Source: a virus. From it: a DNA stretch of 64,000 nt. The notes below the pieces were generated by a model. It did not search any database. It was not told the DNA's origin and saw nothing but the letters and a program-made list of their open reading frames with translations. Shown piece by piece: positions 12,976 through 63,959 of the stretch. A program made the position numbers and the translations under genes. Position 1 is the stretch's first letter. The number at the start of each line of letters is the position of its first letter. The stretch lies in IMG/VR virus record IMGVR_UViG_3300032235_000792, one strand, 5' to 3'.

Positions 12976-12983
12976 GAGAAATA

Positions 12984-13448: not shown

Positions 13449-13460
13449 TATAATTATGCC
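13441..13460 (+). promoter_or_regulatory. TGGTATAAT promoter (overlaps TAA stop) with adjacent complementary ATTATGCC
   Basis: GGTATAAT-ATA-ATTATGCC. Confidence 0.6.
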
Positions 13461-13510
13461 GATTTTGGCAGTTAATAAAACTATGGCAATTATGCTAGTA
13501 AGGAGAATTT

Positions 13511-14479: not shown

Positions 14480-14488
14480 GGAGTAGAC

Positions 14489-14935: not shown

Positions 14936-14945
14936 CGGAGGAAGT

Positions 14946-15206
14946 ATGAAAGTAAAATTTACAAGTACAAGTATCAATGACAAAGTTCAAACTGTATCTA
15001 CGAGCCAATTTGGCGATCGTGAATTCAGTTATGGTGAACGTTATCGTGTCTATTTTAGCAATGGCACCTCTGCTATCGCTTATGTAAATAGACAAAGTGC
15101 AAGCAGCCTCTCAATTGCTAATGAAGATCTCCCTAAAGGACTTCGCCTAGCTAAAGTAGGAAATCCTGTTGTTCGCACAATCAAATCACTTAAGAAAATT
15201 AAGTAA
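14946..15206 (+). CDS. Hypothetical protein
   Basis: GGAGG SD before ATG 14946. Confidence 0.7.
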   Translation: MKVKFTSTSINDKVQTVSTSQFGDREFSYGERYRVYFSNGTSAIAYVNRQSASSLSIANEDLPKGLRLAKVGNPVVRTIKSLKKIK

Positions 15207-15217
15207 GGAGTTTCTCC

Positions 15218-16324: not shown

Positions 16325-16638
16325 TGATAGGCATAGAAGATATTGAATGTATGCTACAGATTGAAATCGAATTCGGGCACTCAGTGCCCGAATTTGCTTT
16401 CGTCAATCCAGCAATTATTCATAACATATTCGAAAAAGGTATATCAGCGGGCTATGCCCCTAACCCTCACTACGGCTTTAGTGGATTTGCTCTATGGACT
16501 AGGATCGGCAGACTAGAACTAGTGCCGTGTCCGTACTTCTCAGATAGCGAAGTTGTATTTTCGTGTAGTAGAAATATGATATTAAATGTATTCAATAAAC
16601 TAGGCTTAGAATATGGCAAAAATTCTGTTCATAGGTGA
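16324..16638 (+). CDS. Hypothetical protein
   Basis: TAGTG coupled start; fills gap between recA and the nuclease gene. Confidence 0.6.
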   Translation: MIGIEDIECMLQIEIEFGHSVPEFAFVNPAIIHNIFEKGISAGYAPNPHYGFSGFALWTRIGRLELVPCPYFSDSEVVFSCSRNMILNVFNKLGLEYGKNSVHR

Positions 16639-17617
16639 TCCTCATCTTAGGATAAACGACTTTGAGCAATCCGTTGCGCTATTGCGATGGATTGAATCTA
16701 TCGCGATAGAACACAAGCCAGACATAGTTTGTAATCTTGGAGACACATTTCATAATCACGCAGTGCTTAGATCTGAGATTATGAAAGAATTTAAAGACCA
16801 TATTGATAATATTGTTAGTAATGATATTACATACTGGTATGTGTTAGGTAATCACGATCAATATAAACCAAAAGATAACAAGTATCACGCACTTCAATCG
16901 TTTGTTCAGCATGAACGATTTGTGATATTCGATAAACCTAGAACAGATATATTAGATATAACAATCGTACCTTATGTTCAGAATTTTGCAGATTTTCCAC
17001 TAGACACCAATAAAATCTGCATAACTCACAATACGTTTATTGGAGCAGATTATGGATTTAGACGTGAAGACTGCGGTATCGACGCTGACAAAGTTTCTGC
17101 AGACATTATCGTATCTGGACATATACACAAAAGGCAGACATTCGGAAAAGTCGTCTATCCCGGAACGCCGGTTGCACATAACGCCACGGATGTGGATGAG
17201 ATTAAGGGATTATTGCTTTTCGACACTGAGACACTTGGGCAATTATTCATACAAGCCCCTTTTCCAGCGTGGAGAAGCCTCGAATTCCAACTTGGACAAC
17301 AGCTCTCAGTAGACGAAATGCACACAAAGATTTCGTCCTCTGTTGATAATACTAATAAGTGGATAGTTAAAATATCTGGGCCAAAAACTGAATTATTAAG
17401 TTATTTTAAGTCTAAAAAATACAACGAGCTTGTTTCTAAAAACAATATAGTAATAAAATCAAACATGATTGACTCTACTAAACAAAGTAGAGTAAAGATA
17501 GAAGCGTCATCGCCTAATTCTATAGTTTCTGATTATGTTAATAAAGTATATAGCGGCAGTATAGATAAGCAGTTGATAATACAAAAAGCACAAGAAATAA
17601 TCAATAACTTACACTGA
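16613..17617 (+). CDS. SbcD/Mre11-like nuclease (T4 gp47-like)
   Basis: GDPH, LGDTFH, GNHD, TH, SGHIH, YPGTP metallophosphoesterase motifs. Confidence 0.9.
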   Translation: MAKILFIGDPHLRINDFEQSVALLRWIESIAIEHKPDIVCNLGDTFHNHAVLRSEIMKEFKDHIDNIVSNDITYWYVLGNHDQYKPKDNKYHALQSFVQHERFVIFDKPRTDILDITIVPYVQNFADFPLDTNKICITHNTFIGADYGFRREDCGIDADKVSADIIVSGHIHKRQTFGKVVYPGTPVAHNATDVDEIKGLLLFDTETLGQLFIQAPFPAWRSLEFQLGQQLSVDEMHTKISSSVDNTNKWIVKISGPKTELLSYFKSKKYNELVSKNNIVIKSNMIDSTKQSRVKIEASSPNSIVSDYVNKVYSGSIDKQLIIQKAQEIINNLH

Positions 17618-17620
17618 TCT

Positions 17621-17629
17621 TGGTATAAT
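17621..17629 (+). promoter_or_regulatory. TGGTATAAT promoter of the packaging operon
   Basis: Intergenic, 18 nt before ATG 17648, SD AGGAG. Confidence 0.65.
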
Positions 17630-17647
17630 GTTAATATAGGAGTCTAA

Positions 17648-18091
17648 ATGGTTAATTATATTGATCATCACCAATGGTTAGTTAATAACAATATGTTAAC
17701 TGATCAAATTAAGGATAACATCGCTATGGGCGGGTATTGCTTAGTTGAGGGTGTTAAAGATGTTGGCACGTCAATAGATTTCAATGATAAGTTGGTGCAC
17801 TACAAGATAATAGTACCAGATAATCTTTATAATAACTTAATGTTGCTTAAAAAGTTTAATAGTGGTGAAAGTTTAGGGTTTTTTGAATCTATTAGATTAA
17901 AAAAATTTTTAAAGATAAAGAAAGAGAACGACGAAAGTGGACTAGGTTATAACCTAGAAAATATTGGTAATAAGTTTGTTAAAACTTACCTAAACAAAGA
18001 ATGGTCCGTTAAAGTAGACCTAATTAAAGAAAGTAGTAATGAAGCAAAAAATTTTTGGCTACATAGCGATACAGATAAATCACTTGACTGA
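17648..18091 (+). CDS. Hypothetical protein
   Basis: Own promoter and SD; 147 aa. Confidence 0.75.
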   Translation: MVNYIDHHQWLVNNNMLTDQIKDNIAMGGYCLVEGVKDVGTSIDFNDKLVHYKIIVPDNLYNNLMLLKKFNSGESLGFFESIRLKKFLKIKKENDESGLGYNLENIGNKFVKTYLNKEWSVKVDLIKESSNEAKNFWLHSDTDKSLD

Positions 18092-18224
18092 TGACGAAGA
18101 TTTAAGACAAGATCTTTGGGTGCTCTTCTTGGAAGGTAAGGCCACTTTTTCTTTTAAAGATTATATAGATACTAAATATGATAAGTGTTTGGAGTTAGAG
18201 GATGGCACTAAAGAGAGATTTTAA
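18039..18224 (+). CDS. Small hypothetical protein with sigma region 2.2-like segment
   Basis: DDEDLRQDLWVLFLEG; overlaps both neighbours. Confidence 0.45.
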   Translation: MKQKIFGYIAIQINHLTDDEDLRQDLWVLFLEGKATFSFKDYIDTKYDKCLELEDGTKERF

Positions 18225-18813
18225 TGATGAAGAAAAGATTGGACTAACTCAAAGAGAAATCGAGTTGGGTGAAAAGTATCTTCGCAAGCATAAAACTGCT
18301 GGTGCAATAGGCGATGTACAGTCTCTTAAACTATACGAGATGTTTTTAATAGGTAGCTCTCTTCACGAAATACAACAACAGTTCCCAGAATATGAAATAG
18401 GTCAAATAGTTCTAACAGCTGCATTAAAAAAATGGGGCATGGATAGAGATAAGATGCAAGGCACTCTTAGAGATCGAGTACGGGCCAAAGTTGTTAAATC
18501 TGTTATTGAACAAGTAGACTTTCTAACATCAATGCTTAGTGTTGCAAATGTCGAGCATGTAGATGAGATGCGGAAGTACATAATTGACCCTAACAATCCA
18601 AAACCAAACCTAAGAATAAAGTCTATAAAAGACTATAAAGAAGTTGCTGAAGTTTTAGGCAAGATAGTTCAGGGTGCAACTCCTGGTGCTAAAAGCAACA
18701 GCATATCGCCTATGTTCGATGCACTTGCTCCTAACACCGGAAAGAGTGTTGAGAAGAAAAGAGACGATGATGACATAGATCTTGATTCTTTGCTAGACAA
18801 GGGTGAAGAATAA
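18202..18813 (+). CDS. Putative terminase small subunit
   Basis: Directly upstream of TerL; HTH-like segment then helical oligomerisation-like region. Confidence 0.55.
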   Translation: MALKRDFNDEEKIGLTQREIELGEKYLRKHKTAGAIGDVQSLKLYEMFLIGSSLHEIQQQFPEYEIGQIVLTAALKKWGMDRDKMQGTLRDRVRAKVVKSVIEQVDFLTSMLSVANVEHVDEMRKYIIDPNNPKPNLRIKSIKDYKEVAEVLGKIVQGATPGAKSNSISPMFDALAPNTGKSVEKKRDDDDIDLDSLLDKGEE

Positions 18814-18818
18814 CGTAC

Positions 18819-20753
18819 ATGAAAAACGACAAGGCTAAATCAAATTTCGATAAGCTATCTCTTAAGCAAAGAAAAACATTGTTTTTCAAGAAGTGCGAAA
18901 CAAGAGAAGAACTGTCTAAATTTATTCAAGTATTCTTCGGACTTCACTTACCGGATCAGGTTGTTTCCAGGTATGCTGATGTTAGTCCATTAGACGTTAT
19001 ATGGGAAGTGTACGATATTTGTGTAAATAAGCGTAACCCTAACAATATAGAAGAAATACTATACGTCGCAGGTCGCGGATCTGGTAAGACTCTAGGTATG
19101 GCAATTGCTGAGTTGCTAGTGATGCTTCATGACGGAAGAGACATATGTCACGTTGGTGCTGTTTTAGCTCAGGCTAAGCGATGTTACGAGTATCAGACCA
19201 AGTTCATGCTATCCGGAAAAATACGCCCGATAATAGAGGATAAGAACTTAGCTCAAGAAGATAGGATCCTGCAAAAATTAAACATGGAAAAATCTACTTT
19301 TTTAGTAGATAATCAGACTGTTACCATAGAAGTACTACCGTGTACACTCAAAGCACTTAACGGTCCTCACGTCCCTCTTGTGGTTACAGATGAGATCGAT
19401 ACCGTTTCTGGCGAAGGATTAAAGGCATTCAAAGAAATTAGCGGTATGCTAGACTCTAAGGGTGACAAGAAAGCTTTAAGAGTTGGTATTTCGACTAGAA
19501 AATCACGTTACGGCTTGATGAACAGAATGATGGAAGATGCTGAGTCAGCAGGAAGACACGTTCGTAGATGGACTGCTTGGGAGTTTACAGAGCGCTGCCC
19601 AGATGAAAGATCTGGCACAACGCCAACTGAATCATACCATATTCAAGATAATATGGAGGTTATTGACGAAGCAACCTTTAAAATGAAAGATCCTAAGAAG
19701 CAAAAAGAATACACACAGCACACGATGCCAGGCGAAAAATGCCTAGCCTGTCCTGCTGCTGCTATATGTCTTGGCGACGCGAAAAAACAAGCGTCAAAAT
19801 CATGGATGCTGAAGCCAGTTGGTGAATTGATTAAGAAAGTAAGGTCAGAAGGTACTGATTGGGCTTTAGCTCAGCTAATGAATCTAAAACCGTCTGTTGA
19901 AGGGATTATATACAAAGAATTTGATGAAAAAATACATGTAAAAGACTGGAACTCAATGTGGAGAACCTTAACCGGAACAGACTTTCCAGGTGAATGTTCA
20001 CATGATATATTTGTAAAAAAATGCCATGCCATGCACCTACCTTGCTATGCTGGTGTTGACTGGGGATGGTCTAATCCAAATACAGTCGTTTATTTTTTCA
20101 TAGATAAAAGAGATAATGTTTACGTCGTGAGATCTGATGGGATGACCTACGTCTCTCAGCCAGAGTGGATCCACTATATAAAGACAAAATACAATGCAAT
20201 GTATCGCTGCCAGCTCTACTTTCCAGATATCGCGGATCAAGGTGCTGTAACAGAAATGAAGAAAGCTGGACTACCTGTTTCAGCTGATAATGATAAGTCA
20301 ATTAATACTGGCATACAAGTAATCAAAAGACTGCTTAGAGTTCCTGGTACTAGCGACACCAAGATGCACGTCGCTAAAGAGACCAATGAACCTCTTATAA
20401 TTGAATTTTTAACTTATCACTTTAAGACTTCAGCTGACGGAACAATTACTGAAATGCCAGATACTGAATACGATCACTGGCTAGATGCTCTAAGATACCC
20501 ATTGACAATGCTTTTAGGCAAAGGAACAATGGTCATGGGGCAAATGATAGATGTAGATAAGGCTAATACAATAGATTCGCAAGGCAACTACTACAAGACA
20601 CCTTCACCGGAAGAATTTTGTGTAGTAAATAACTTAAAGATAAACACTGACGAGCCAGATTTAACTAAACTTGGAAAAATAGGTCGCTTAAACGACATAG
20701 ACGATGAAGAAGACCAAAACGGCGGCAGTGGCGGGTTTTTATGGGGTTTTTAG
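18819..20753 (+). CDS. Terminase large subunit
   Basis: AGRGSGKT Walker A, VVTDEID Walker B, ISTR coupling motif, AGVDWG and DHWLDALRY nuclease motifs. Confidence 0.92.
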   Translation: MKNDKAKSNFDKLSLKQRKTLFFKKCETREELSKFIQVFFGLHLPDQVVSRYADVSPLDVIWEVYDICVNKRNPNNIEEILYVAGRGSGKTLGMAIAELLVMLHDGRDICHVGAVLAQAKRCYEYQTKFMLSGKIRPIIEDKNLAQEDRILQKLNMEKSTFLVDNQTVTIEVLPCTLKALNGPHVPLVVTDEIDTVSGEGLKAFKEISGMLDSKGDKKALRVGISTRKSRYGLMNRMMEDAESAGRHVRRWTAWEFTERCPDERSGTTPTESYHIQDNMEVIDEATFKMKDPKKQKEYTQHTMPGEKCLACPAAAICLGDAKKQASKSWMLKPVGELIKKVRSEGTDWALAQLMNLKPSVEGIIYKEFDEKIHVKDWNSMWRTLTGTDFPGECSHDIFVKKCHAMHLPCYAGVDWGWSNPNTVVYFFIDKRDNVYVVRSDGMTYVSQPEWIHYIKTKYNAMYRCQLYFPDIADQGAVTEMKKAGLPVSADNDKSINTGIQVIKRLLRVPGTSDTKMHVAKETNEPLIIEFLTYHFKTSADGTITEMPDTEYDHWLDALRYPLTMLLGKGTMVMGQMIDVDKANTIDSQGNYYKTPSPEEFCVVNNLKINTDEPDLTKLGKIGRLNDIDDEEDQNGGSGGFLWGF

Positions 20754-20780
20754 TATAATGTATCTTACGGAGGAGATATG
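20752..20780 (+). promoter_or_regulatory. AGTATAAT promoter and weak SD/AUG-occluding hairpin of the portal gene
   Basis: TAG stop fused to TATAAT; TGTATCTT/GAGATATG pairing with G-U pairs. Confidence 0.5.
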
Positions 20781-22673
20781 GCTTTTTGGGACACATGGAT
20801 AAGAGACGGAGTTAAGCGAGAACTAGAGGCTTTGAATAAAGGAGACCCGGATGCTGTTCCGGAAAAGCCTGACACTATGCCAGAGGATGACGACCCTGAG
20901 ATTGGTCGTAAGGCGATAGTAGCGGATCCTTTTTTTACACAGCAAAGTCAACAGACAATATTTAGATATCGCTTGTCTAGACTATCAAATAAGACGTTAA
21001 AAGACGTCTCTATGAGAGACTGGCTTGTTTCAGCTATTCTTCAGAACAGAGTAGACACACTTGTTCGCTTTTCTAGACCGCAAGTCCGAAAGTTTGATAT
21101 GGGATATCGGATTGTGAAAAAGAATAAAGAATCTGAGCACACCGAAGAAGAAAATAAAGAGATTGAGAATCTTCAGGAGTTTATATACAACTGCGGAAGA
21201 ATTCAAAATACACCAGACGAAGATCGTATGCTGTTTGGTGATTTTATGAAAATGATAGTTAGAGACGCGCTGACTTTTGGCAACGTAACGGTTGAAAAAG
21301 TTAGAACTAGAAGAGGTGCTTTACATAGATTTAGGCCTGTTCCTGCTGAGAGTGTTTACCATATAAATCCAAATGCTCCGAAGGCTCAAGTAGAAGATCA
21401 TATTAAGTCTGTCAAGAATACTTACACACCTAAGTCTGATAATGATCCTAAAAAGAACTATCAAGTAAATGATTTACCGTTAGATTATTTTAAGTACGTT
21501 CAAGTGTCTTACGATAACAGACCTTTGGCTGTCTTCGGTGATGAAGATCTTATATTTAAGTTGTTTAATCCGCAGAATTTTGCAGATGGTAATGGATATT
21601 GCTATTCGCCAGTTGAAATGGCAATTATAAATATTACTAATCACATGAATACGGAGCACTATAATTCTAACTTTTTTACACATGGTCAGGCTGCTAAAGG
21701 TGTACTTCACCTTAAAGGTACGGTAACTCAGTCACAGATGACTGCGTTTAGGAGACAATTCTACAGTCTTATTAACGGTGCACAAAATGCATGGAGAACT
21801 CCTATTGTTTCTGGTTTAGAAGATGTTCAATGGGTGCCAATGGCAGGTGGCTCAAAAGACATGGAGTATCTTAACTACAACATGCATCTTATGCGCTCAG
21901 TATGTACACAGTTTCAGATTGACCCGATGGAGTTAGGTTTGGATCTTCTAGTTACTGGTGGTCGTGCAGCAAACCTACAAGGACACCAGACAAAGATTGA
22001 ATTCTCCAGAGAGAAAGGCTTGTATCCTTTACTTATGTTCGTTGAAGACTTCGTGAACTCGAGCATAATCCCAGCCATCGACCCAGAGTACTCAAAGAAG
22101 TATAAGTTTCAATTTGAAGGATATACAGATGAGACTCCTCAGACAGAAATTGCATTATTGCAAGCTGAGATGAGCGTAAACAAGACAATGAATGATTTGT
22201 TAAGTTCTGCAAGAAAAGCTCACATCAAACACCCAGTTGCTGATTTGCCAATGAATGCCGCTTTTTGGGGCCTAGTTGAAAAGAATATGACTCGTGGAGA
22301 AATACGAGAACTATTCTTTGGAGACAAAGGGGCTTCAAAAAAGAAAGAACTACAATACATACCGGCTGATCCAGCGTTCTTATCATGGCAGCAGATGCTA
22401 TTGACTATTGAAAATACTAAAAAGCAAGAACAACAACAGCAACAAGCTATGGCGCAACAACAGCAAGCAATGGCACAGCAAGCTCAAGTAGAGCAAGCTC
22501 AGCATAGTCGAGATCAAGAAAAACATGACGCAGAAATGAGTCAAGTAAGAGGTCAAGCCGCGTATAATGCTGTTAAGCATGGACAAAACTTGCATGATGC
22601 CGCTGAGCAAGCTGGTGCAACTAAACCAACAAACATCGGTGGAAAAAATATCAAGAACCCGCTAAACTTATAA
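20778..22673 (+). CDS. Portal protein (SPO1/K-like)
   Basis: Follows TerL; RDALTFG, YSPVEMA, YNSNFFTHG..KGVL, NAWRTPI, DMEY, FQIDPMELG, KGLYPLL; Gln-rich tail. Confidence 0.9.
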   Translation: MAFWDTWIRDGVKRELEALNKGDPDAVPEKPDTMPEDDDPEIGRKAIVADPFFTQQSQQTIFRYRLSRLSNKTLKDVSMRDWLVSAILQNRVDTLVRFSRPQVRKFDMGYRIVKKNKESEHTEEENKEIENLQEFIYNCGRIQNTPDEDRMLFGDFMKMIVRDALTFGNVTVEKVRTRRGALHRFRPVPAESVYHINPNAPKAQVEDHIKSVKNTYTPKSDNDPKKNYQVNDLPLDYFKYVQVSYDNRPLAVFGDEDLIFKLFNPQNFADGNGYCYSPVEMAIINITNHMNTEHYNSNFFTHGQAAKGVLHLKGTVTQSQMTAFRRQFYSLINGAQNAWRTPIVSGLEDVQWVPMAGGSKDMEYLNYNMHLMRSVCTQFQIDPMELGLDLLVTGGRAANLQGHQTKIEFSREKGLYPLLMFVEDFVNSSIIPAIDPEYSKKYKFQFEGYTDETPQTEIALLQAEMSVNKTMNDLLSSARKAHIKHPVADLPMNAAFWGLVEKNMTRGEIRELFFGDKGASKKKELQYIPADPAFLSWQQMLLTIENTKKQEQQQQQAMAQQQQAMAQQAQVEQAQHSRDQEKHDAEMSQVRGQAAYNAVKHGQNLHDAAEQAGATKPTNIGGKNIKNPLNL

Positions 22674-22700
22674 GATAAGTTAGCGCTCATCCCCTCCAAG

Positions 22701-22725
22701 AGGCTCCTTAACCGGAGCCTTTTTT
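22701..22725 (+). terminator. Intrinsic terminator after portal
   Basis: AGGCTCC-TTAACC-GGAGCCT followed by T run. Confidence 0.85.
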
Positions 22726-22730
22726 ATATC

Positions 22731-22738
22731 AGTATAAT
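22731..22738 (+). promoter_or_regulatory. AGTATAAT promoter just after the terminator
   Basis: Motif match in intergenic DNA. Confidence 0.55.
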
Positions 22739-22780
22739 CATTTTGTGATAATTAATGATTACGAAATATTTTATAAATTA

Positions 22781-22909
22781 ATGTTTACTATTGCTAAATT
22801 AGATATAGATAATCATATAGTAAATCATATTCATGACGATGATGGTCCATATTTTGCATTAACAAAAGCTGAAAATTACGTCTTAAAATTTAAAAGAGGG
22901 ATATACTAA
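22781..22909 (+). CDS. Small hypothetical protein (42 aa)
   Basis: MFTIAKLDIDNHIV...RGIY; TAATG coupling to next gene. Confidence 0.4.
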   Translation: MFTIAKLDIDNHIVNHIHDDDGPYFALTKAENYVLKFKRGIY

Positions 22910-23751
22910 TGACTTGGATTATTTTAGAAGGCCTAGATCGTTCTGGTAAATCTACTGTTGCTGAAATGTACAAGAGTGAGGGATTTGAGATAATTCACAT
23001 GAATGCCCCAAATAAGATGTATTTTAAGCAAGGCTATTCGGGTCCCTCGTATCTCGAAGAAATGATAGACCTATATTCAACCTATGCTGGCAAAGACGTA
23101 CTGTTTGATAGATCTGCATACGGCGAACTAATATGGCCAGAAATCTATAATAGACAAGCTCTGTTGACATCAGAAGACTTCGAGTATCTCCAACAATTAG
23201 AGTACAATAACGACACAGTAAAAATATTAATGTACGATGAAAATAAAGATGCACATTGGCAGCGATGTGTAGACAATAAAGAACCTCTTACACGACAACA
23301 GTTTGTACACGCAACAAGGTTATATGAAGAAATGGCTAAAACGCATAATTTCGAGAAAAAACAACTTAAAGACTTTACGAGAAACAACTCGGCAACTAAG
23401 CAAATTGATGCAGGACAACCAGCAGAAAAATCCAATGATAGAGGTGTTAGCATGTCTGGGATTCTACGATCAAGCGATGGAGACGGAAATGAAGATTCCG
23501 AACTTCGCGGTGTGGCACAGTCTGTACTTGACAAGAAACTTGAGAGGGCAAATGCCATCAGAGATCTTTTGTCAGCGCCGATCGTTAAGAAAAAAGGAAG
23601 CGCTTTTCAGCAGCTTGAAAAAGATATTAAGCTCTTCCTAGAACAGCAGCTAGAAAATATATTTAATGAGCCAAAGCAAGACGATTTCACTAATGAAGAG
23701 GTCAAAATACTAAAAATATACGCACAGCGCATAAAGGAAAAGTTAGGTTAA
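22909..23751 (+). CDS. Thymidylate/dNMP kinase-like protein with C-terminal extension
   Basis: ILEGLDRSGKST P-loop, LFDRS motif. Confidence 0.8.
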   Translation: MTWIILEGLDRSGKSTVAEMYKSEGFEIIHMNAPNKMYFKQGYSGPSYLEEMIDLYSTYAGKDVLFDRSAYGELIWPEIYNRQALLTSEDFEYLQQLEYNNDTVKILMYDENKDAHWQRCVDNKEPLTRQQFVHATRLYEEMAKTHNFEKKQLKDFTRNNSATKQIDAGQPAEKSNDRGVSMSGILRSSDGDGNEDSELRGVAQSVLDKKLERANAIRDLLSAPIVKKKGSAFQQLEKDIKLFLEQQLENIFNEPKQDDFTNEEVKILKIYAQRIKEKLG

Positions 23752-23755
23752 TACT

Positions 23756-24100
23756 ATGATAACGTTTAAGGAACGCAAGACGGTTTATTTCGATTGCGAT
23801 GATACACTTTTAGAATGGAAAACATGTAATGAGCATGATGTAGGCGCAATAACAATTGAAAATAACGGACACACGTTTTATAAGAAAGTAATATCGGCAA
23901 ATGTAGAAGCTCTTATAGATCATTCACTGGCTGGTCATCTAGTTGTAGTTTGGTCAGCTGGTGGATCAACTTGGGCAGAAACAATAATTAAAGCTCTGCG
24001 TATTGAACCATACGTAGACGTTATCCTAAATAAGCCAGATTTCTTTTACGATGATAAGGACCCGTCACATTGGCTACCAGAAAGACAATTTAAGGCATAA
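23756..24100 (+). CDS. HAD-superfamily phosphatase-like protein
   Basis: YFDCDDTL motif I, VWSAGG motif II, KPD..YDD motifs III/IV. Confidence 0.75.
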   Translation: MITFKERKTVYFDCDDTLLEWKTCNEHDVGAITIENNGHTFYKKVISANVEALIDHSLAGHLVVVWSAGGSTWAETIIKALRIEPYVDVILNKPDFFYDDKDPSHWLPERQFKA

Positions 24101-24563: not shown

Positions 24564-25142
24564 ATGAAAGGAATTAAGCTGGCAAAACAAGATTCTGTAA
24601 AAAACAGGATTAAAGAACTGGAAGTTGCACTGCAAAACACGCAGATGGCACTACAAGTATCACAGATGATGATAAAGCATTTAACAGATCAATTCAAGGC
24701 GACTCAAAATGACGTTGCTAACACGATGGGTATGCTAAATGATTTTCAATATAGAACTTTAGCTATGCTTGAAGTAGGTAACTTTAGTAAAGATGCAATT
24801 GATTCACAAGCTGAAGTCCTTAAGCTAAAAGACTTTAACGATGCTTCTATTAAAGAAGATATCGAGAAAGGTTATCTAGATGATGAGGCTGGCGTTGTGG
24901 CTGAAGATAGTGTTATTGTCATTACTTCGCGCACTCCTGGTCTAGAAGAAGATCAAGGTATTTTTCGTTCCAAGTTTCCAATGGCTGAGTGCCTAACTCC
25001 TGCACTAAGAAATAAGCTTCTAGGGTTAAAGTTAAATGATAAAGTTAGTGTAGAGCTCGGTGGGACAACCCATGAGGTCTCTATTCTTTCTATTAAAAAA
25101 CTTAAAGTAGCAAATGAAAGTGTGACTGAGAAAGAAGGTTAG
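24564..25142 (+). CDS. Coiled coil plus GreA/FKBP-like C-terminal domain protein
   Basis: GGAGGA SD; TPALRNKLLGLKLNDKVSVELGGTTHEVSILSIK resembles the Gre C-terminal domain. Confidence 0.55.
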   Translation: MKGIKLAKQDSVKNRIKELEVALQNTQMALQVSQMMIKHLTDQFKATQNDVANTMGMLNDFQYRTLAMLEVGNFSKDAIDSQAEVLKLKDFNDASIKEDIEKGYLDDEAGVVAEDSVIVITSRTPGLEEDQGIFRSKFPMAECLTPALRNKLLGLKLNDKVSVELGGTTHEVSILSIKKLKVANESVTEKEG

Positions 25143-25696: not shown

Positions 25697-26035
25697 ATGG
25701 ATAGTAGGTGCCCCAGAAAACTGGAGCACCTACCATGCGAATTTTGCCCACTAGCAGTTTTGAGATTAAAGGCACTCAGAAATAGTGACAAAGAACTCTC
25801 TGAAGACGAGGAATCCACTCTTCCAGGATGCTCATGGGCTATAAATCATCAGATGTCAAATTACTGCTTCTTTAACTATGTTGCTGATTATTTGCATGAT
25901 GTACCTTCCGATAAAGAGATAGCTCATATGAATAACGTCTCTGTCGAAACTATAAAAGATGCCACTAAAGATGCTATAGAAGAGATAAAATGTCTAAAAG
26001 TCATAAAAGACCTAGACGACGATGCTGCATTCTAG
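25697..26035 (+). CDS. Cys-rich protein with sigma region 4-like HTH
   Basis: C..CEFC..C..C then SDKEIAHMNNVSVETIKDATKDAIEEIK. Confidence 0.6.
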   Translation: MDSRCPRKLEHLPCEFCPLAVLRLKALRNSDKELSEDEESTLPGCSWAINHQMSNYCFFNYVADYLHDVPSDKEIAHMNNVSVETIKDATKDAIEEIKCLKVIKDLDDDAAF

Positions 26036-26125: not shown

Positions 26126-26133
26126 AGTATAAT
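26126..26133 (+). promoter_or_regulatory. AGTATAAT promoter of prohead protease
   Basis: 17 nt upstream of ATG 26151, SD AGGA. Confidence 0.65.
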
Positions 26134-53296: not shown

Positions 53297-54093
53297 TTTC
53301 TACCTAACATTTTAAGTATCTTATCTTCGTCTCTGTCGTATATGTGCAACGAGTCTACAATATGTGTGTATGTTCCAACTTTTAGATTTGGGTACGTAGC
53401 ACTCAACTCTGACACCATATCTTCTGCTAGACTTATAAACCATGGCAAATCATAGACTAAACCAAGAGTCAAATCATTGCTGCGCATATGAACTCTAAAC
53501 AATAACTCGTCATTTCTGATATGAAAATTGCCGTCCAACGTGCATGTCATGTCTTTATTACCCTTGTAAAAATGCTCGGGCAGACTAAATCTAAGTATTG
53601 CTTGGCGAGTATCTTTGTCTGATCTTAGAGCATCTAGGCACCACTGCCAAGGTGTCCTCATTGCGTTCTTAGCATTGTCTGCCAAAAAATCTACGATATC
53701 ATCTGTGCTCATCATCTGCATTTGATCGAATAGTTCATATATAGGATTACCGTGAGTCTTCTTATGACGAATCAAGTGGCCATAGGCAGAATTTACTGTA
53801 CCATCAGGATTTGCTAGTTTTAGCCAGAATTTAGATGCCTCACCAAATTTATCTGCCTTATTAGTCCCAGAATTATAAAGATCACATTCTTTTTTAGTAT
53901 AGTCTGCAATAACTTTATTTCGTTCAGCATCTTTAGTTACTATAGTTTCACTTTTAGGATTCTCTATTTGAAAACCGTAGTATAGCTTTTCTCTTATCTG
54001 CTGACCTCTAGGTGAACATATATAATCTGGGTTATCGTACACGTCCGCTAGTGCGCCAAGATATGCATCATGAATATTGCTGAATTTGTTCAT
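53293..54093 (-). CDS. dCMP hydroxymethylase-like enzyme (thymidylate synthase superfamily, T4 gp42-like)
   Basis: YTKKE..Y.SG, W...A..DGTVNSAYG, DTRQAI, DMTCT, MRSNDLTLGLVYD, SLHIY; GGGAG SD before ATG 54093. Confidence 0.85.
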   Translation of the reverse strand: MNKFSNIHDAYLGALADVYDNPDYICSPRGQQIREKLYYGFQIENPKSETIVTKDAERNKVIADYTKKECDLYNSGTNKADKFGEASKFWLKLANPDGTVNSAYGHLIRHKKTHGNPIYELFDQMQMMSTDDIVDFLADNAKNAMRTPWQWCLDALRSDKDTRQAILRFSLPEHFYKGNKDMTCTLDGNFHIRNDELLFRVHMRSNDLTLGLVYDLPWFISLAEDMVSELSATYPNLKVGTYTHIVDSLHIYDRDEDKILKMLGRK

Positions 54094-54122
54094 CGCTCCC
54101 CCTAGATATAGATTCATTATAC

Positions 54123-54524
54123 TTAATCATCTATATCTATCTCGCCCAACAGTTCTTCTAAATTAGAGGACCATACGCCGTAACCTTTTGATTTATTAGT
54201 TAATTTTTTCATTAGAGAGCCAACTCTTTTACTCAAATGACCGTACACAAAAGTTGATTCTTTGGTGTTGTGATGAGGACTGTAGTTCCTTAGGGCAATA
54301 AAGACTTCGGACATTAAATAAGATCTAACATCGGACATCGTCCATCCACTATTGCCTAGGCTAACTTCATCGCTGCTATTTGTAACAGACAAACTAGCCT
54401 CGTTCCAATTCTTTCTGACAGACATAGCTAGATAAGATTCCACCATTGACTGGTACTTAGTTACCATATCGTTTGTTACACTTCTTTTAACTGCGGGTTC
54501 ATTTACTAATTGGCTTACTTCCAT
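54123..54524 (-). CDS. Sigma-70 domain-2-only RNA polymerase sigma-like factor
   Basis: MVTKYQSMVESY (2.1-like), GWTMSDVRSYLMSEVFIALRNYSP (2.2), TKESTFVYGHL (2.3); no region 4. Confidence 0.65.
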   Translation of the reverse strand: MEVSQLVNEPAVKRSVTNDMVTKYQSMVESYLAMSVRKNWNEASLSVTNSSDEVSLGNSGWTMSDVRSYLMSEVFIALRNYSPHHNTKESTFVYGHLSKRVGSLMKKLTNKSKGYGVWSSNLEELLGEIDIDD

Positions 54525-55029
54525 GTTTTTGCTCCATTATTTCAAATAGTTTAAGTATGTTCTTCCTGTGAACAATGTTGTCTGGGTGTGTCAAAGAATT
54601 TTCTCTACTAGCAGAATCAGCATACTGTGCTACATCAAAAATAAAATTCAACAAACTTTCATTTTCATCTCTGTTTAGTTTTTTCATAGTTAAAAATAAT
54701 TGCCTATATAACTTAGTACGTCTTGGGCTTGAGTTAAAGCAAACTTTTGAATATAATGGTAATACCTGATTAGTGATATAACTATTTATATTACTTATAG
54801 TAGTATTTACATCTATCACATACCCCTTAGGGGCGAAGTTTTGCATTTTTCTTGTCGCAAATTCTTTTACTAATTTTTCGTGAAAAGAATCACCGCTAAC
54901 ATTAGGTTGCCAGCTGCCAATCTCTGAGCTTCTTAGAGAAGTTTTATTGTTGAGAATACGCACTTTAAGTACTGGTGCACCTGGATCAATCTGACTTAGC
55001 AAGGATTTAATCTTATCTGAGTGGCTCAC
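54499..55029 (-). CDS. Hypothetical protein
   Basis: GTGA-coupled, AAGGAGG SD. Confidence 0.75.
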   Translation of the reverse strand: MSHSDKIKSLLSQIDPGAPVLKVRILNNKTSLRSSEIGSWQPNVSGDSFHEKLVKEFATRKMQNFAPKGYVIDVNTTISNINSYITNQVLPLYSKVCFNSSPRRTKLYRQLFLTMKKLNRDENESLLNFIFDVAQYADSASRENSLTHPDNIVHRKNILKLFEIMEQKHGSKPISK

Positions 55030-55739
55030 TTGACCTCCTTCTCTTCCATAGAATATATAGGTTTATTTTGATGTGTCATTATTTTTAATCTAGTTACATT
55101 ATTTAGTGCGGCTAGATTTCCATCTTTTATGTATAATAGGATCCATGATGCAAATTTTGTGCATAGATCAATATCTCTTATGTCTACTTTCTTAGAATCT
55201 ATTAGATTTGCCATATGAATTCTAAACGAGTAACTTTTCTTTCGCACAGATCTTTGTTTTTTGGTATCTTTATCGTTAAATAAATCTGCAATTTCATTGA
55301 ATCTGCTAGGGTCAAGATCACGGTACAGCCAGCTATTAAATGTTAGCCCTTCTAGTATTGTCTGCTTAGCAATTTTTTCCACATCTGAATCGTCGTATGC
55401 GATCTTCTTCTTAACCATGACAATTCGGTCAGACAGAACATTGTCCTTAAAGTTTAGAGTCGTTTCTTCAACCTCTTCGCCGAACTCGTCTATGATCTTA
55501 AACTCAAAAAAATCATTGGCCATGTCATAGCTCTTGTTTACTAAAGAATCAAGACCTAGTATTCTTGCATGTTTTCTTAAAACATCTTTTGTGCTAATAC
55601 CCCAAGGACTCTCTAGGTCCTCTGGATCTACTACCACTTCATCTGGAAACTTGGACAGATCTTCATTTACAGAATATTGATACGGCTCGATCATCTTTGA
55701 GATTTCGTCCATATCCTCATAAAACTTGTCTTTAAACAT
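55026..55739 (-). CDS. Hypothetical protein
   Basis: AGGAGGT SD, 237 aa. Confidence 0.8.
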   Translation of the reverse strand: MFKDKFYEDMDEISKMIEPYQYSVNEDLSKFPDEVVVDPEDLESPWGISTKDVLRKHARILGLDSLVNKSYDMANDFFEFKIIDEFGEEVEETTLNFKDNVLSDRIVMVKKKIAYDDSDVEKIAKQTILEGLTFNSWLYRDLDPSRFNEIADLFNDKDTKKQRSVRKKSYSFRIHMANLIDSKKVDIRDIDLCTKFASWILLYIKDGNLAALNNVTRLKIMTHQNKPIYSMEEKEVK

Positions 55740-56179: not shown

Positions 56180-56336
56180 CTATATCCTCCAGTATGTTAC
56201 CAGTGGAACTAGCTGTACTGGCGAAGTCCCACATTAATGATTCGAAGTTTCTTATATGTTTATCGTAAGCTATAAGTTCTAACTTGTCTAAAGTCATTAT
56301 TAAATCAATAACTGATTTACTGCCATTTGGCATCAT
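56076..56336 (-). CDS. Hypothetical protein
   Basis: ATGA-coupled to Pth2; about 100-nt overlap with next gene. Confidence 0.5.
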   Translation of the reverse strand: MMPNGSKSVIDLIMTLDKLELIAYDKHIRNFESLMWDFASTASSTGNILEDIDAKLYTDEVYRTREKERALQALLGRIKTSDGTTR

Positions 56337-56692
56337 AGTAGTTTTAAATGACCAGTGATCTTGTCTAGATCTTCTTTTCTAGCTGGACCAATAGCACAAC
56401 AGGTTAAAGTAGGAACGCCGGCGAATTCAGTTCTACCGGCGTCCAATATGATAGAACAGGGCAATCCAGCTGTTCTAGCACTTTCATATACATCTTTTAG
56501 TTCTTTTTCTGATTCAACCTTTAGAGTTATCTTCGTGAAAGCATCTGCCAACCAAGCCTTAACATTCGGGTGATCAAGATTTTCTAAAGTAACCTTTAAT
56601 GAAGCATGAGCACCTTGAGCAACCATCTTGCCTTTGCGCATATTTAGATCATTTCTCATAACTATAATCTGCCTATGATCACTCGCACTCAT
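56333..56692 (-). CDS. pth2: Peptidyl-tRNA hydrolase, Pth2 family
   Basis: MRNDLNMRKGKMVAQGAHAS, KITLKV, DAGRTEF, CAIGP, DKITGHLKLL. Confidence 0.92.
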   Translation of the reverse strand: MSASDHRQIIVMRNDLNMRKGKMVAQGAHASLKVTLENLDHPNVKAWLADAFTKITLKVESEKELKDVYESARTAGLPCSIILDAGRTEFAGVPTLTCCAIGPARKEDLDKITGHLKLL

Positions 56693-56693
56693 T

Positions 56694-56873
56694 TTATTCC
56701 TCTGTGTACCATTCCTCTGTGTACCATTTATCTGGGTGACATTTTTTAAGAATTTTAGCTAGCTGTTCAGTTTCTATGCCGTCGCTATTTTTAGGTTCAG
56801 TAAAGCCTAGCAATTGATCTGTAGCTGCTAAAAACTTATCTACAATATTAAAACTAGAAAACGAATATTCCAT
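56694..56873 (-). CDS. 59-aa protein with truncated J-domain-like HPD motif
   Basis: QLLGF...I...LAKILKKCHPDK-WYTEE-WYTEE; 15-bp tandem duplication at 56696-56725. Confidence 0.55.
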   Translation of the reverse strand: MEYSFSSFNIVDKFLAATDQLLGFTEPKNSDGIETEQLAKILKKCHPDKWYTEEWYTEE

Positions 56874-56891
56874 GATAGAATATTAAATCTG

Positions 56892-57089
56892 TTATGGTTT
56901 TCTATTTTTGTGATCTAGATATAGAGAAATAGGCCAGATGAGGTGATTTAGCATACCAGCTAATACAACAGAGAAAACTCCTGCATAGCCAGAAGTCACT
57001 ATGGAGCTTATATCTTTGGCGTATTTTAAATGAAGATGCATGTTGACGCCTGCACCAATTATTAGATATACGGTTATAGCTAAGATCAT
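56892..57089 (-). CDS. Small membrane protein
   Basis: Two hydrophobic segments, WP motif, GAGGT SD. Confidence 0.7.
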   Translation of the reverse strand: MILAITVYLIIGAGVNMHLHLKYAKDISSIVTSGYAGVFSVVLAGMLNHLIWPISLYLDHKNRKP

Positions 57090-57097
57090 AAAACCTC

Positions 57098-57586
57098 TTA
57101 GAACGGTCTTGACCGGTTAGTCCATTTTGGGATGAGTTTATCTCGCTCCCAGCGATCTATTAGATAAAGTCTATAAGCAGTAGGCACGTCCTCTAGATGC
57201 TTGTAGTTTATACCCATGTCTTGCCTCGCTGCACAGTTAGCAAATGGAGTCAGCGGTTTTTCTGGTATATGGCTAGAACCGGCAGCAAGATCTTTATAGA
57301 GTTCTCTATAGGTTTTATGAACTTTACCGGTGCGATATGTGTATTCATCTGCTAGTGCCTTCATGTGTTCAAGTAGCCAATTGTAGTTAGCCTTACTCTC
57401 ACGAACCCACACATTAGATGGATGATTCGCATGTGTGATCTTATATTTTGCTAGATGCGAAGCACCATTGAGATGCAGTGCTGTACATAACATTTGCGCT
57501 GACTCAAGGATCATCTTGTTTACACGTTTGTCGTCTAGGTTTATTGCAGATTTAATAGGATCTAGGTCTGATATAAATATGTTCAT
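57098..57586 (-). CDS. Pyrimidine dimer DNA glycosylase/endonuclease V family protein
   Basis: MNIF..D.DP..SA..LDDKRVNKMILESAQML, H.NHPSNVWVRES..NY.WL, EY.YR.GK.H. Confidence 0.85.
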   Translation of the reverse strand: MNIFISDLDPIKSAINLDDKRVNKMILESAQMLCTALHLNGASHLAKYKITHANHPSNVWVRESKANYNWLLEHMKALADEYTYRTGKVHKTYRELYKDLAAGSSHIPEKPLTPFANCAARQDMGINYKHLEDVPTAYRLYLIDRWERDKLIPKWTNRSRPF

Positions 57587-58335: not shown

Positions 58336-59049
58336 TTACTCCCCTGCGTCATTTTTAGGTTTTACTAATTTAAGTTTAGACTTCGCGTCTTTTGTTTCTC
58401 TATCTAACTGAGACTTAATACTAGCTTCAATTTTAGGGCCTATATCAGACGCTATATCACGCATCTCTTGCTCACTAATTTCATCACTATTAGATTGATC
58501 TATAAGTTTTGGCTTAAGACCTTTTAAATGTAAGATTTTAGCTTTAAAAAGCTCTAAGCTCTTTCTTAAATTTTTCTTTTTCTTTTCAGGTGCTTTTTTA
58601 GAGTATTTTTCATCACCTTGATTGTATTTTTGAGATATCAGCTCAACATTACCAGAGGCATAGCCCTTGTTATTATTCTTACGATTCATCGACATCTTCT
58701 TACCGTGCTTCTTCTCGGCTGAAGCGTATCTTTTTGCTGCTGAACCCGTCTTTGTCTTCATATGGCCAGAAGCATGCCCGTTTTTCCCATTCTGACCAGA
58801 CTTAGTCCCAGCTCCGCCTTTCTCACGTCGTTTAGCTTGTAGGACTTGCTGGTATCCGCGCTCTTTATGTCCTGGTGTTTTGCGTTGTCTACTTAGTTTT
58901 GCTAGCATTTTCTTATACTTAGCAGGATCCTTGTCTTTCCAATAGTGAGCTGCTTTATTCAACTGTAAATCTGAGGCTATCTCTTCGTCTAGCCATTGCA
59001 AGTCAGATAAAAGCTCTTCTAATGATTTCAATAAGTTTTCGTTTTCCAT
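58336..59049 (-). CDS. Basic protein with Lys-motif boundaries and degenerate HNH-like segment
   Basis: LLK-S, LNK-A, LRK-S, LFK-A; SMNRKNNNKGYASGNVELIS..YN; TGGTATAAT 6 nt upstream of ATG. Confidence 0.7.
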   Translation of the reverse strand: MENENLLKSLEELLSDLQWLDEEIASDLQLNKAAHYWKDKDPAKYKKMLAKLSRQRKTPGHKERGYQQVLQAKRREKGGAGTKSGQNGKNGHASGHMKTKTGSAAKRYASAEKKHGKKMSMNRKNNNKGYASGNVELISQKYNQGDEKYSKKAPEKKKKNLRKSLELFKAKILHLKGLKPKLIDQSNSDEISEQEMRDIASDIGPKIEASIKSQLDRETKDAKSKLKLVKPKNDAGE

Positions 59050-59055
59050 AAAGCT

Positions 59056-59064
59056 ATTATACCA
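59056..59064 (-). promoter_or_regulatory. TGGTATAAT promoter, leaderless spacing
   Basis: TATAAT-AGCTTT-ATG on - strand. Confidence 0.6.
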
Positions 59065-59156
59065 GAAATCTAAACTTAAATTCTTAGTTCAGTTACAACC
59101 TGACACTGCTACGTTAAGCAGCCCGCAAACCATGATTCTTTTATTTAAGTTCGTAT

Positions 59157-59773: not shown

Positions 59774-61276
59774 TTATTTTCTTCCGCCTGGAATTTGGAC
59801 TGTCTTAGCCCAAGGCTCATTTTTAAACGGATGTTCAGTTGTACCATCTTTACTGATGATAAAGACTGTATTTGGAAATCTGCCATTCGGACCTACTAAA
59901 GCTTTAGTATCAACATTACTGTAGTAACCGTCAGTTAATACAATTGCTAAATCAGGTCGTGATTTGGCAATGACACGGAAAGAATCTTCTAAACATGTGC
60001 CACCTGATTGAATATCTTCTCGCTTGATACGCTGACCACGTTTGTAATCTTCGCGATAATAATTACTAGTATGAAACATATTTAGTGTACATTTTTTAGC
60101 ACCGACGCGCAAGAACTCATCAACAATATCTAAGAAGTTATTTGCTTCTTCAATTGAGATCGAACCAGATGTGTCAATGAAATTATCTAACTTAGGCTCA
60201 TCGCCGTTCTTATTTCCAGGTGCCATGTTGCCATATCTCTTAGACTTACGTGTCCAAGATTTTATTCTAAAATTAGCAGGCAGAGAAGATTTCATTGCTT
60301 GAAGAATTAGACGCTTATAGTCTAGTTCTGCTTTTCGCTGCTTAATATGATCAAGCAATTCTCTAATGTGGCCAGGCAATTCATCGTGGCCGAATTTACA
60401 TTTTACCATTGCGCGTTTTACTAAATCCTCGGTTGCTTCTAGCATATCTTTTTCTTCAGATGAACCGTCCCAATGATGCACGTCTGTAGTGTTTGGTAAA
60501 TCACTACTTGCAGCACCGCCACCGGCGTTTCCTTGACCTTGATCGCCTTGGCCTTCGCCTTGATTGTTCTTATCTTCTGGGTCAGGGTCTTTGAACCTTT
60601 CCATCAATTTTTCGTAATAATGCTCGGCAGGTTGACGCGCTTCCCATTGCGTTTGCTTGCCAGATTTATCTGTATCATAGAAGTCTTTTATCATGATGCC
60701 GGATCCGCAACAATCAGGATTTTCACACGGTGCACCGCCAAACTCACCTGGTTGACGTGGTGGACACTGAGGACATCCTTCCGGAAGATCTTTGATGAAT
60801 TGATTAATCGCCATGTCCATGGCGATATTCATCAATCTTCTTTTATGCACAGATAACTTCATGAAAGGAACACGCAGCGGATGCTTGTGGGTGATGTGAT
60901 ATAATTCATGAAGAAGAACTGCTTTGCGCTGTGCTTCATTTAATTTTCTGCAGAAAAAATATGGGTTTATAAGAAGATCCCATCGCTTTAATTCGGCATT
61001 GAACATAACGCCGGCTGTTGGTAGCATGTGGCTATATGTCATATTCATACATTGAAGCACTGAGCCCATGAAAGGATTTGTCTTTGTTGTGCTGAAGATG
61101 GCAGTTTGCAAACATTGCTTTTGCTCTTCTGCGCTAACAGTTTCTTTTACAGAAGCTTCTAACGCTTCTTCACGAGAACGAATGCCAGCTTCTTTAGCTC
61201 TCTTTTTTAATTCTTCTAATTGTTTTTTCTCTTCATCTGTTAAATCAACATTTGGATCGCTTGATGTATTAGACAT
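59774..61276 (-). CDS. Metallopeptidase-vWA protein (DUF2201-like)
   Basis: LLHELYH, NIAMDMAINQ; MIDAS IDTSGS, GGT, LTDGY; GGAGG SD before ATG 61276. Confidence 0.9.
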   Translation of the reverse strand: MSNTSSDPNVDLTDEEKKQLEELKKRAKEAGIRSREEALEASVKETVSAEEQKQCLQTAIFSTTKTNPFMGSVLQCMNMTYSHMLPTAGVMFNAELKRWDLLINPYFFCRKLNEAQRKAVLLHELYHITHKHPLRVPFMKLSVHKRRLMNIAMDMAINQFIKDLPEGCPQCPPRQPGEFGGAPCENPDCCGSGIMIKDFYDTDKSGKQTQWEARQPAEHYYEKLMERFKDPDPEDKNNQGEGQGDQGQGNAGGGAASSDLPNTTDVHHWDGSSEEKDMLEATEDLVKRAMVKCKFGHDELPGHIRELLDHIKQRKAELDYKRLILQAMKSSLPANFRIKSWTRKSKRYGNMAPGNKNGDEPKLDNFIDTSGSISIEEANNFLDIVDEFLRVGAKKCTLNMFHTSNYYREDYKRGQRIKREDIQSGGTCLEDSFRVIAKSRPDLAIVLTDGYYSNVDTKALVGPNGRFPNTVFIISKDGTTEHPFKNEPWAKTVQIPGGRK

Positions 61277-61293
61277 GGACCCTCCTTTTGTTT

Positions 61294-62016
61294 TCAAAAT
61301 ATAGAATCTGTCGAAGGAAACAAGGATTCGTGCGTTTTGTCACCTAATTCTTTAAGGTAAGAAATAGTGTGTTGAATTTCTCTAGCATTTCTTGCGATGG
61401 CCATATTTAAGTCTCTTTTTATCCAGTTTCCGCCGCCAGCTTTTTTAGTATTATCAAGCTCAAGACCTTTAGAAAGTAATTCTTTAAGTTCTTTTAAGTT
61501 TGCCTTTATTTCTCGCTTTGTTTCTCGTTCTTCTCTTTCTTTTTCTTCTTGCTCTTTCTGAATTAGAGTTTTGTTTTTTCTTATGTTAGGCGGATCAAAG
61601 TCAAGCGATGTATCGGTTAACATAGCGTCTATAACCATTTCATCAAAATCTTTTTCATTCAATTTTTTGAAAGTAGATGGTGTATAGAACCTATATTTAA
61701 CAAGTATGTAAGATTCTTCGTAACTTCTAGAATAGACCGCTTCTCTAGAAATACTTACACCTAGATATACTTTAGTATCTGGGTAATAACCATAATTTTG
61801 AACAGATATATAGCGATCATCGTAATCTCCGTAATTATTTTTTTTAGGAGCAGATGCGAAGTCTAGGCCGTTATCTTTTAGACATTGTTGAGCTAGTCCG
61901 TCCATGAAAGCTATAATGTCATGAGTCTTGTGTCCAGTTATGGATTGTATGTTTGTGATTAAACATCTACATATGTCGTACTCACGCTTGATAGTTACTT
62001 TATTCTTTTTAGACAT
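61294..62016 (-). CDS. Hypothetical protein
   Basis: 240-aa ORF, AGGA SD. Confidence 0.75.
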   Translation of the reverse strand: MSKKNKVTIKREYDICRCLITNIQSITGHKTHDIIAFMDGLAQQCLKDNGLDFASAPKKNNYGDYDDRYISVQNYGYYPDTKVYLGVSISREAVYSRSYEESYILVKYRFYTPSTFKKLNEKDFDEMVIDAMLTDTSLDFDPPNIRKNKTLIQKEQEEKEREERETKREIKANLKELKELLSKGLELDNTKKAGGGNWIKRDLNMAIARNAREIQHTISYLKELGDKTHESLFPSTDSIF

Positions 62017-63918: not shown

Positions 63919-63959
63919 ATAACCCTCATATATTTATTATATGATCCGTTAATGTACAT

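Follow-up and report, generated by a model that had tools for sequence, protein, structure and literature searches.

A strongly diverged, sigma-2-only protein of a large environmental phage that probably retargets host RNA polymerase to promoters without a -35 box

The 133-aa ORF at 54123-54524 raises the question of whether a sigma factor reduced to its domain 2 can direct the RNA polymerase of the host to phage promoters without a -35 box, as an initial annotation of this DNA had proposed. The DNA analyzed, called the window hereafter, is a stretch of 64,000 nt from the virus record IMGVR_UViG_3300032235_000792, and coordinates refer to the whole window. The ORF has the length annotated, and both peptides that had been quoted as sigma-like are present in its translation. 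We named it mini sigma A and regard it, with moderate confidence, as a very diverged sigma-70-family protein keeping sigma-2 only; this confidence covers the whole explanation given below, that is, the diverged sigma-2-only protein together with the core docking and promoter mechanism proposed for it. The gene and its two operon partners are the following:

54123..54524, minus strand: mini sigma A gene, 133-aa protein with a sigma-2-like domain
54499..55029, minus strand: 176-aa ORF of no known family, the middle gene of the operon, fast-evolving and overlapping the start of mini sigma A by 26 nt
55026..55739, minus strand: 237-aa ORF of no known family, the first gene of the operon, with orthologues in the relatives G002, G003, G004 and G010

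The phage encodes GroEL, PhoH, SbcCD and a UvsX-like recombinase. The combination of an SPO1-like head with a DnaE polymerase, noted at the outset, was confirmed: the head module of the window comprises terminase, portal, protease and an SPO1-type major capsid protein that is 28-30% identical to those of Herelleviridae, and the polymerase is of the DnaQ-PHP-DnaE type. No close phage was found by megablast among 50,697 deposited records. Synteny with the window was seen in the complete IMG/VR relative G002 (165.8 kb), in which 68 of the 86 ORFs have a match; it was used as a context genome together with the likewise complete G003 (166.6 kb, with terminal repeats) and with G004, G005 and G010, which are 66-81% complete. 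The nearest record, G001, is a 24-kb fragment that does not carry the mini sigma A gene.

The mini sigma A ORF begins with ATG, preceded by GGAG at a distance of about 8 nt. Among 5.8 billion proteins it matched 168 metagenomic clusters at E<=0.01, none of them annotated, which measure 114-137 aa (nearly all 121-137 aa) and lie on contigs of up to 184 kb. Among 26 aligned members, 63-92% identical to the protein of the window, 47 columns are invariant. These results confirm that mini sigma A is a true ORF under strong selection. Only 41 further clusters were gained when a profile was run exhaustively against 1.8 billion representatives, indicating that the family is narrow and phage-borne. No tblastn match to mini sigma A was found among the 50,697 deposited phage genomes, SPO1 included, megablast of the region and tblastn of the long relative P0150 found nothing in the same records, and no published description of the family was found in the literature.

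Curated models gave no family assignment, as no Pfam or PHROG model matched mini sigma A above its cut-off, and a profile search of PDB sequences with the family returned nothing. The Sigma70_r2 profile (PF04542; gathering score of 24 bits) was not matched above its gathering score by the protein of the window; the G003 orthologue scored 14.9 bits, 7 of the 26 members matched the profile weakly (best E 0.015, under the cut-off), and weak matches also occurred in the distant relatives P0146, P0149 and P0152. Other sub-threshold matches of mini sigma A were Pfam Antirestrict (E 0.03) and two PHROGs of unknown function. An identity with Antirestrict, matched by 6 of the 26 members (best E 0.00098), was dropped because it stays under the cut-off while the sigma-2 evidence from VIA-align, hhalign and BFVD, given below, is consistent. 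Several distant relatives are longer proteins: P0148, P0150, P0151 and P0157 (304-331 aa) carry a sigma-2-like domain followed by a C-terminal XRE-type helix-turn-helix, and P0146, P0149, P0152, P0154 and P0158 (261-365 aa) carry it behind an N-terminal part that weakly resembles ligase/capping-enzyme nucleotidyltransferases.

The fold of mini sigma A was analyzed on an AF2 model (pLDDT 77, pTM 0.70) with three long helices (residues 25-39, 63-80 and 89-112). In a VIA-align comparison with 48,161 PDB chains ranks 1-10 were all sigma domain 2, with Z of 8.3-6.7 and rmsd of 1.9-3.0 over 70-80 residues; they came from sigmaK, sigma70, sigma28, SigB, SigI, SigE, sigma32, SigA and RpoS, and the first unrelated folds appeared at rank 11, mixed with more sigma matches. 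The scores are moderate, and the tool warns that helical models can attain such Z values by common packing alone; the main structural argument is the uniformity of the sigma-2 list at the top. Foldseek searches of PDB and BFVD also placed sigma factors first (probability 0.94-0.99, but all with E>0.07), and the top rows from BFVD, a collection of viral models, were phage sigma factors.

Sequence profiles were compared with hhalign, which aligned the family to the bona fide sigma-2 alignment of the clade with 58% probability and with regions 2.1, 2.2 and 2.3 in register, placing KESTFVY of mini sigma A against KFSTYA. In this register the position of Y430 of E. coli sigma-70 stays aromatic as the invariant F92, W433/W434 correspond to the invariant G95/H96, and Q437/T440 to K99/G102; the melting and reading set of primary sigmas (Y430, W433, W434, Q437 and T440) is not kept, only the Y430 position being aromatic. 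The WW pair that wedges open the -10 element in primary sigmas is absent from ECF sigmas too. The 2.2-like and 2.3/2.4-like helices were the most conserved parts in an alignment spanning 23-82% identity, which fits a DNA-reading role beyond core binding alone.

Behind the sigma-2-like part (residues ~13-112) come a conserved segment, K-GYG-W, and a C-terminal tail of hydrophobic and acidic residues, NLEELLGEIDIDD. Beyond residue 112 the pLDDT drops to about 50 or lower, and a short helix (122-126) sits within the conserved tail LE[EQ][VIL]LGE. After residue 133 the ORF stops, and a thymidylate-synthase homologue (Pfam/PHROG scans) is encoded next, indicating that no region 4 follows. The AF2 model, VIA-align and hhalign thus support the proposal of a sigma reduced to domain 2, and on the strength of these models the assignment of a sigma-2 fold without sigma-4 to mini sigma A holds.

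In the mechanism that we propose, the region-2.2-like helix (63-81), in which D65 and E73 are invariant among close relatives, would dock on the beta' clamp helices of the host core RNA polymerase. An ESMFold2 complex with residues 250-325 of E. coli beta', taken as a stand-in for the host, scored 0.49 against 0.02 for the best control (range of the controls 0.00-0.02); the runs used an author-supplied alignment and gave at least 70% contact agreement and a partner pLDDT of at least 59, and the tool rated the result as weak support. Of 80 solved complexes 58 attained the mark for this score, as did 2 of 110 mismatched pairs, and a pass at 0.60 or below is wrong more often than right unless the pairing was likely beforehand. 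Since sigma-2/beta' is a textbook complex, the score may just mirror likeness to solved complexes.

The promoters to which this docking could lead fall into two classes. Class 1, RGTATAAT, had been described as a promoter without a -35 box and proved to be so: the window holds 15 copies against 7.2 expected, none of 100 shuffles reached 15, and the -35 region had zero information content over 45 sites. Nearly all copies lie just upstream of a same-strand ORF, often 6 nt ahead of the ATG, and 11 of them are on the plus strand (2342, 4567, 6173, 13442, 17622, 20752, 22731, 25598, 26126, 27737 and 32860). GTATAAT was the top intergenic word in G002, G003, G004, G005 and G010 (GC 35-53%). Canonical two-element sigma-70 promoters were not enriched (48 found, 54 expected). 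The TGGTATAAT copies are extended -10 promoters, a type that sigma-70 can use without a -35 box. Three class-1 elements bear on the genes discussed here:

59056..59063, minus strand: class-1 promoter GGTATAAT, 6 nt ahead of the ATG of ORF 58336-59049, which is apparently leaderless
54116..54123, minus strand: class-1 motif AGTATAAT, sharing bases with the mini sigma A stop codon and located ahead of the thymidylate-synthase homologue
26126..26133, plus strand: class-1 promoter AGTATAAT, ahead of the prohead protease gene

The promoter at 59056 heads a long minus-strand gene run that includes mini sigma A, and no strong terminator was found between it and the rest of the run. Genes for a PTH2-type peptidyl-tRNA hydrolase, a pyrimidine-dimer glycosylase-like protein and a DUF2201 metallopeptidase/VWA protein (56333-56692, 57098-57586 and 59774-61297, minus strand) belong to the gene run of mini sigma A. 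The thymidylate-synthase homologue (54093-54125 region, minus strand) probably starts at the second ATG (MNKF...), behind GGGGGAG, and with this start AGTATAAT over the mini sigma A stop would be the homologue's own promoter.

Class 2, again a single block without a -35 box, reads ACAGAnTCGATAT in G002, AACCGATTCGA(A/T) in G003 and CCGAATCAAT in G010. Its consensus is about AAC[AC]GAnTC[GA]A[TA], the variation among genomes being A/C at position 4 and G/A at position 10, and, lacking a conserved T at -7, it is unlike the primary-sigma -10 element. Arrays of small genes stand behind such boxes, which were located within 102353-142782 in G002, 9258-24000 and 121747-165226 in G003 and 19513-65012 in G010, all on the plus strand. 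A PWM scan found two class-2 copies in the window:

56880..56893, minus strand: class-2-like box AACAGATTTAATAT, 6 nt ahead of the ATG of ORF 56694-56873
61299..61312, minus strand: second class-2-like box, GACAGATTCTATAT

The box at 56880 lies on the strand of mini sigma A, 2.4 kb upstream of that gene, and has equivalents at 142782 in G002, 18974 in G003 and 56133 in G010. The word TGACACTGCTACG or its complement was seen just upstream of several promoters of both classes (59090-59110, minus strand, and 63930-63950 in the window; 102320-103400 in G002).

The initial annotation had also pointed to a sigma4-like ORF and a Gre-like ORF as possible companions of the 133-aa protein, and both were upheld as conserved genes of these types:

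25697..26035, plus strand: stand-alone protein with Cys4 and a sigma region 4.2-like helix-turn-helix, a candidate flap-binding partner of some sigma
24564..25142, plus strand: Gre/Rnk-like protein with an N-terminal antiparallel coiled coil and a C-terminal FKBP-like domain

The Cys4/sigma-4.2-like gene is present in the window and in G002, G003, G004, G005 and G010, and one orthologue passes the Pfam Sigma70_r4 cut-off with 25.3 bits. The model of the Gre-like protein matched GreA, GreB, Gfh1 and Rnk as well as FKBP isomerases, and its gene is kept in every relative examined. The C-terminal domain of this protein matched SlyD, trigger factor and FkpA, and a Mip/FkpA-like reading of it is possible. 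PDB profile searches with the Gre-like and sigma-4-like families gave nothing convincing. Mini sigma A, the sigma-4-like gene, the Gre-like gene and GTATAAT all occur in the relatives, the two accessory genes being no more than candidate companions of mini sigma A.

Two further sigma-like proteins occur in the clade. Mini sigma B, a second sigma-2-only protein, was found in all four genomes covered by a profile search (G002, G004, G005 and G010) and also in G003, and reaches the Pfam cut-off in G002 and G003. It adjoins a ClpP-like gene; in G002 and G003 (L023:200-1021, L024:338-1009) the ClpP-like protease gene is on the strand opposite to mini sigma B, with one small ORF between them. In G005 (87869-89788, minus strand) mini sigma B occupies the C-terminal part of an ORF of 639 aa whose N-terminal region is long and acidic; this is either a fusion or a mis-called start. 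The second protein is an RpoD-like sigma of 228-229 aa that keeps the canonical FSTYATWWIRQ and ends within region 4.1, ahead of the 4.2 helix-turn-helix. It bears on the suggestion that a fuller phage sigma elsewhere in the genome might account for the RGTATAAT promoters: the suggestion is half borne out, in so far as the protein is present in the close relatives G002, G003 and G007, but it does not extend to the more distant G004, G005 and G010 (66-81% complete), in which the protein was not detected and GTATAAT is still used. The latter three genomes showed no counterpart of the RpoD-like stretch that lies beside a conserved 264-aa gene in G002. As a partner of the Cys4/sigma-4-like protein, the truncated RpoD-like sigma is no worse a candidate than mini sigma A, and mini sigma B would be an equal possibility.

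The position of these genes relative to the two promoter classes is conserved. In the window, G002, G003 and G010, the operon formed by small ORF(s), the 237-255-aa gene, the 163-176-aa gene and mini sigma A starts behind a class-2 box, and a class-1 element lies directly ahead of mini sigma B in G002, G003, G010 and G004 and precedes the RpoD-like sigma in G002. Since its operon stands behind a promoter of the early-array type, mini sigma A would be made early. Its nearly invariant region-2.3/2.4-like helix, KESTFVYGHLSKRVGSLMKKLT, with F92, H96, K99 and R100 as the predicted DNA contacts (D65 and E73 being those predicted for the core), would then open one phage promoter class without a -35 box, and most likely switch transcription to the RGTATAAT class. 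In the simplest cascade class 2 would fire first, mini sigma A would follow and class 1 would be turned on last, driving the replication genes, the virion/structural genes, mini sigma B and the RpoD-like sigma. This order agrees with the reading of RGTATAAT by the 133-aa protein that the initial annotation had inferred.

The three overlapping genes that end this operon always finish with mini sigma A (window 54499-55739, minus strand; L041:3496-4712; L008:9471-9968; L052:16474-17729). Neither partner, of 237-255 and 163-176 aa across the relatives, has a Pfam, PHROG, PDB or Atlas relative; specifically, the 176-aa and 237-aa ORFs of the window had no usable match in the ESM Atlas, and a PDB profile search with the 237-aa ORF gave nothing convincing. 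Both co-operonic proteins may be cofactors.

The evidence suggests that mini sigma A probably brings the RNA polymerase of the host to phage promoters lacking a -35 box. As to the class involved, a role as the reader of class 1 is plausible at somewhat less than even odds, an assignment drawn entirely from the wiring, with mini sigma B and the RpoD-like sigma equally available as RGTATAAT readers. That it reads neither class is distinctly less probable, and that it reads class 2 slightly less probable again. The presence or absence of the genes did not discriminate between the classes, as no relative examined lacks either of the mini sigmas or either of the motif classes, and neither did covariation of the reading helices with the motif classes, as both helices vary and six genomes are too few.

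The strongest alternative is that mini sigma A is the sigma for class 2, the ACAGAnTCGATAT-like class, activating its own operon and the small-gene arrays, RGTATAAT being left to host sigma-70, mini sigma B or the RpoD-like sigma. Since mini sigma A also lies downstream of the class-1 promoter at 59056, the wiring fits such autoregulation from class 2 as well: the operon is directly behind a class-2 box in four genomes and the promoter at 59056 could supply the first transcripts. Autoregulation is common in ECF sigmas. Other readers of class 1 could also be provided for, by the RpoD-like sigma with its canonical -10 reader and by the extended -10 character of the TGGTATAAT copies. On the other hand, class 2 spans about 13 conserved bases, which exceeds the usual contact of one sigma-2 domain, it differs among genomes while the putative reading helix of mini sigma A barely changes, and GTATAAT is still used by relatives in which the RpoD-like sigma was undetected. 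We consider this alternative unlikely.

A less probable alternative is that mini sigma A is a decoy, a sigma-2 mimic that blocks or displaces the host sigma on the beta' clamp helices and opens no promoter, the outcome being host shut-off. The sigma-2 fold, the weak beta' docking prediction, the replacement of the melting tryptophans by G95 and H96 and the placement of the gene in an early operon would all suit a decoy. However, the 2.3/2.4 DNA-reading helix is the most conserved part of the protein and would be needless for such a function, and the distant relatives described above join the sigma-2-like domain to a DNA-binding helix-turn-helix. Moreover, host sigma-70 should miss class 2, as this class has no conserved T at -7, and the phage needs a reader for it. 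Least probable, and very doubtful in our view, is that mini sigma A is an unrelated small helical protein without a transcription role whose three-helix core is merely sigma-2-like, as nothing above any curated cut-off, Z values of 6-8 in the tool's chance range for helical models and the weak Antirestrict match might suggest, since the ten best structural matches belong to one domain family, the viral library independently yields sigma factors, sequence profiles put the sigma motifs in register and the controls of the complex prediction reached just 0.00-0.02. The case against the sigma reading would lie in the moderate structural scores, the lack of a curated model and the stand-in host of the complex prediction.

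As a sigma-2-only promoter factor mini sigma A resembles designs of the T4 gp55 and SPO1 gp28-gp34 kind, although it fails all sequence-based family tests. Only one portion of T4 gp55 is sigma-like, a sigma-2 homology domain through which it binds the beta' clamp helices; the promoter that gp55 reads is 8 bp long and lacks a -35 box, and the place of sigma-4 falls to a separate small protein (PMC7892883, PMC2988020). T4 gp55 and mini sigma A share a small phage sigma-2-only architecture and a short hydrophobic/acidic end after a poorly ordered linker (PMC2988020), the likeness being one of architecture only. No relation to gp55 was found by sequence or profile, in that no Pfam/PHROG late-sigma family and none of the 50,697 records (tblastn) matched, and the structural match to gp55 (VIA-align, Z 6.3) is weaker than those to cellular sigma-2 domains. 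The present phage also differs from T4 in having an SPO1-like head, a DnaE polymerase and no T4 core, in the two paralogous mini sigmas and two promoter classes of its clade, and in its candidate stand-alone partner, which in contrast to gp33 has a true sigma-4.2-like helix-turn-helix and a Cys4 cap. T4 uses the gp45 sliding clamp, whereas searches of five relatives for a phage clamp gene (PF02768, PF02916) gave no match, so that a clamp-binding role of the mini sigma A tail is a lead only.

In SPO1, successive phage sigma-like factors act on the host core, and an early-made factor switches the promoter class (PMC13401047). The present phage has the same type of capsid module as SPO1, but tblastn of mini sigma A finds nothing in the SPO1 record. 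SPO1 uses gp28 for middle genes and gp34 with gp33 for late genes; its promoters have two elements, whereas both promoter classes of the present phage are single blocks. The SigO-RsoA pair of B. subtilis also carries the sigma-2 and sigma-4 functions on separate polypeptides, the genes being adjacent and co-regulated. In contrast, the sigma-4-like gene of the window lies 28 kb from mini sigma A, in the head module, and the pairing of the two proteins is a candidate only. ECF (group 4) sigmas, among which SigE, SigW and CnrH were matched by VIA-align, are like mini sigma A minimal, without the WW melting motif and of similar sigma-2 size, but they always retain sigma-4 and read a -35 element, while mini sigma A is under the Pfam Sigma70_r2 threshold.

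Detailed knowledge of sigma-2-only promoter factors comes essentially from T4 gp55, and our results suggest that large environmental phages of a widespread, unrelated lineage either evolved or retained this minimal design, in duplicate and beside free-standing sigma-4-like and Gre-like proteins. If the proposed role of mini sigma A is true, this lineage would offer a compact natural system for how little sigma suffices for promoter opening, would show how two minimal sigmas split a viral programme between two single-block promoters, and would give a function to at least 168 unannotated metagenomic protein clusters.

A wider scheme, which we consider unlikely, would have the whole clade of uncultured 130-185 kb phages rely on two sigma-2-only factors wired to each other, together with a stand-alone, Cys4-capped sigma-4 and a Gre-like factor, to drive the host core. 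Mini sigma A made from class 2 would activate the RGTATAAT genes, among them mini sigma B, which in turn would read class 2; since class 2 is unlike a host promoter, a sigma carried in the virion would have to start the loop. By analogy with the gp55 tail and the clamp, the tail could link mini sigma A to a replication hub.

In a scan of C-termini, acidic/hydrophobic ends akin to NLEELLGEIDIDD were seen in only two other ORFs, the SSB-like protein (13511-14479), which ends in ...DDILAMADDLFNS, and the ORF preceding the large terminase (18202-18813), which ends in ...DDDDIDLDSLLDKGEE. Mini sigma A, the SSB-like protein and the pre-terminase ORF may share a docking partner through these tails.
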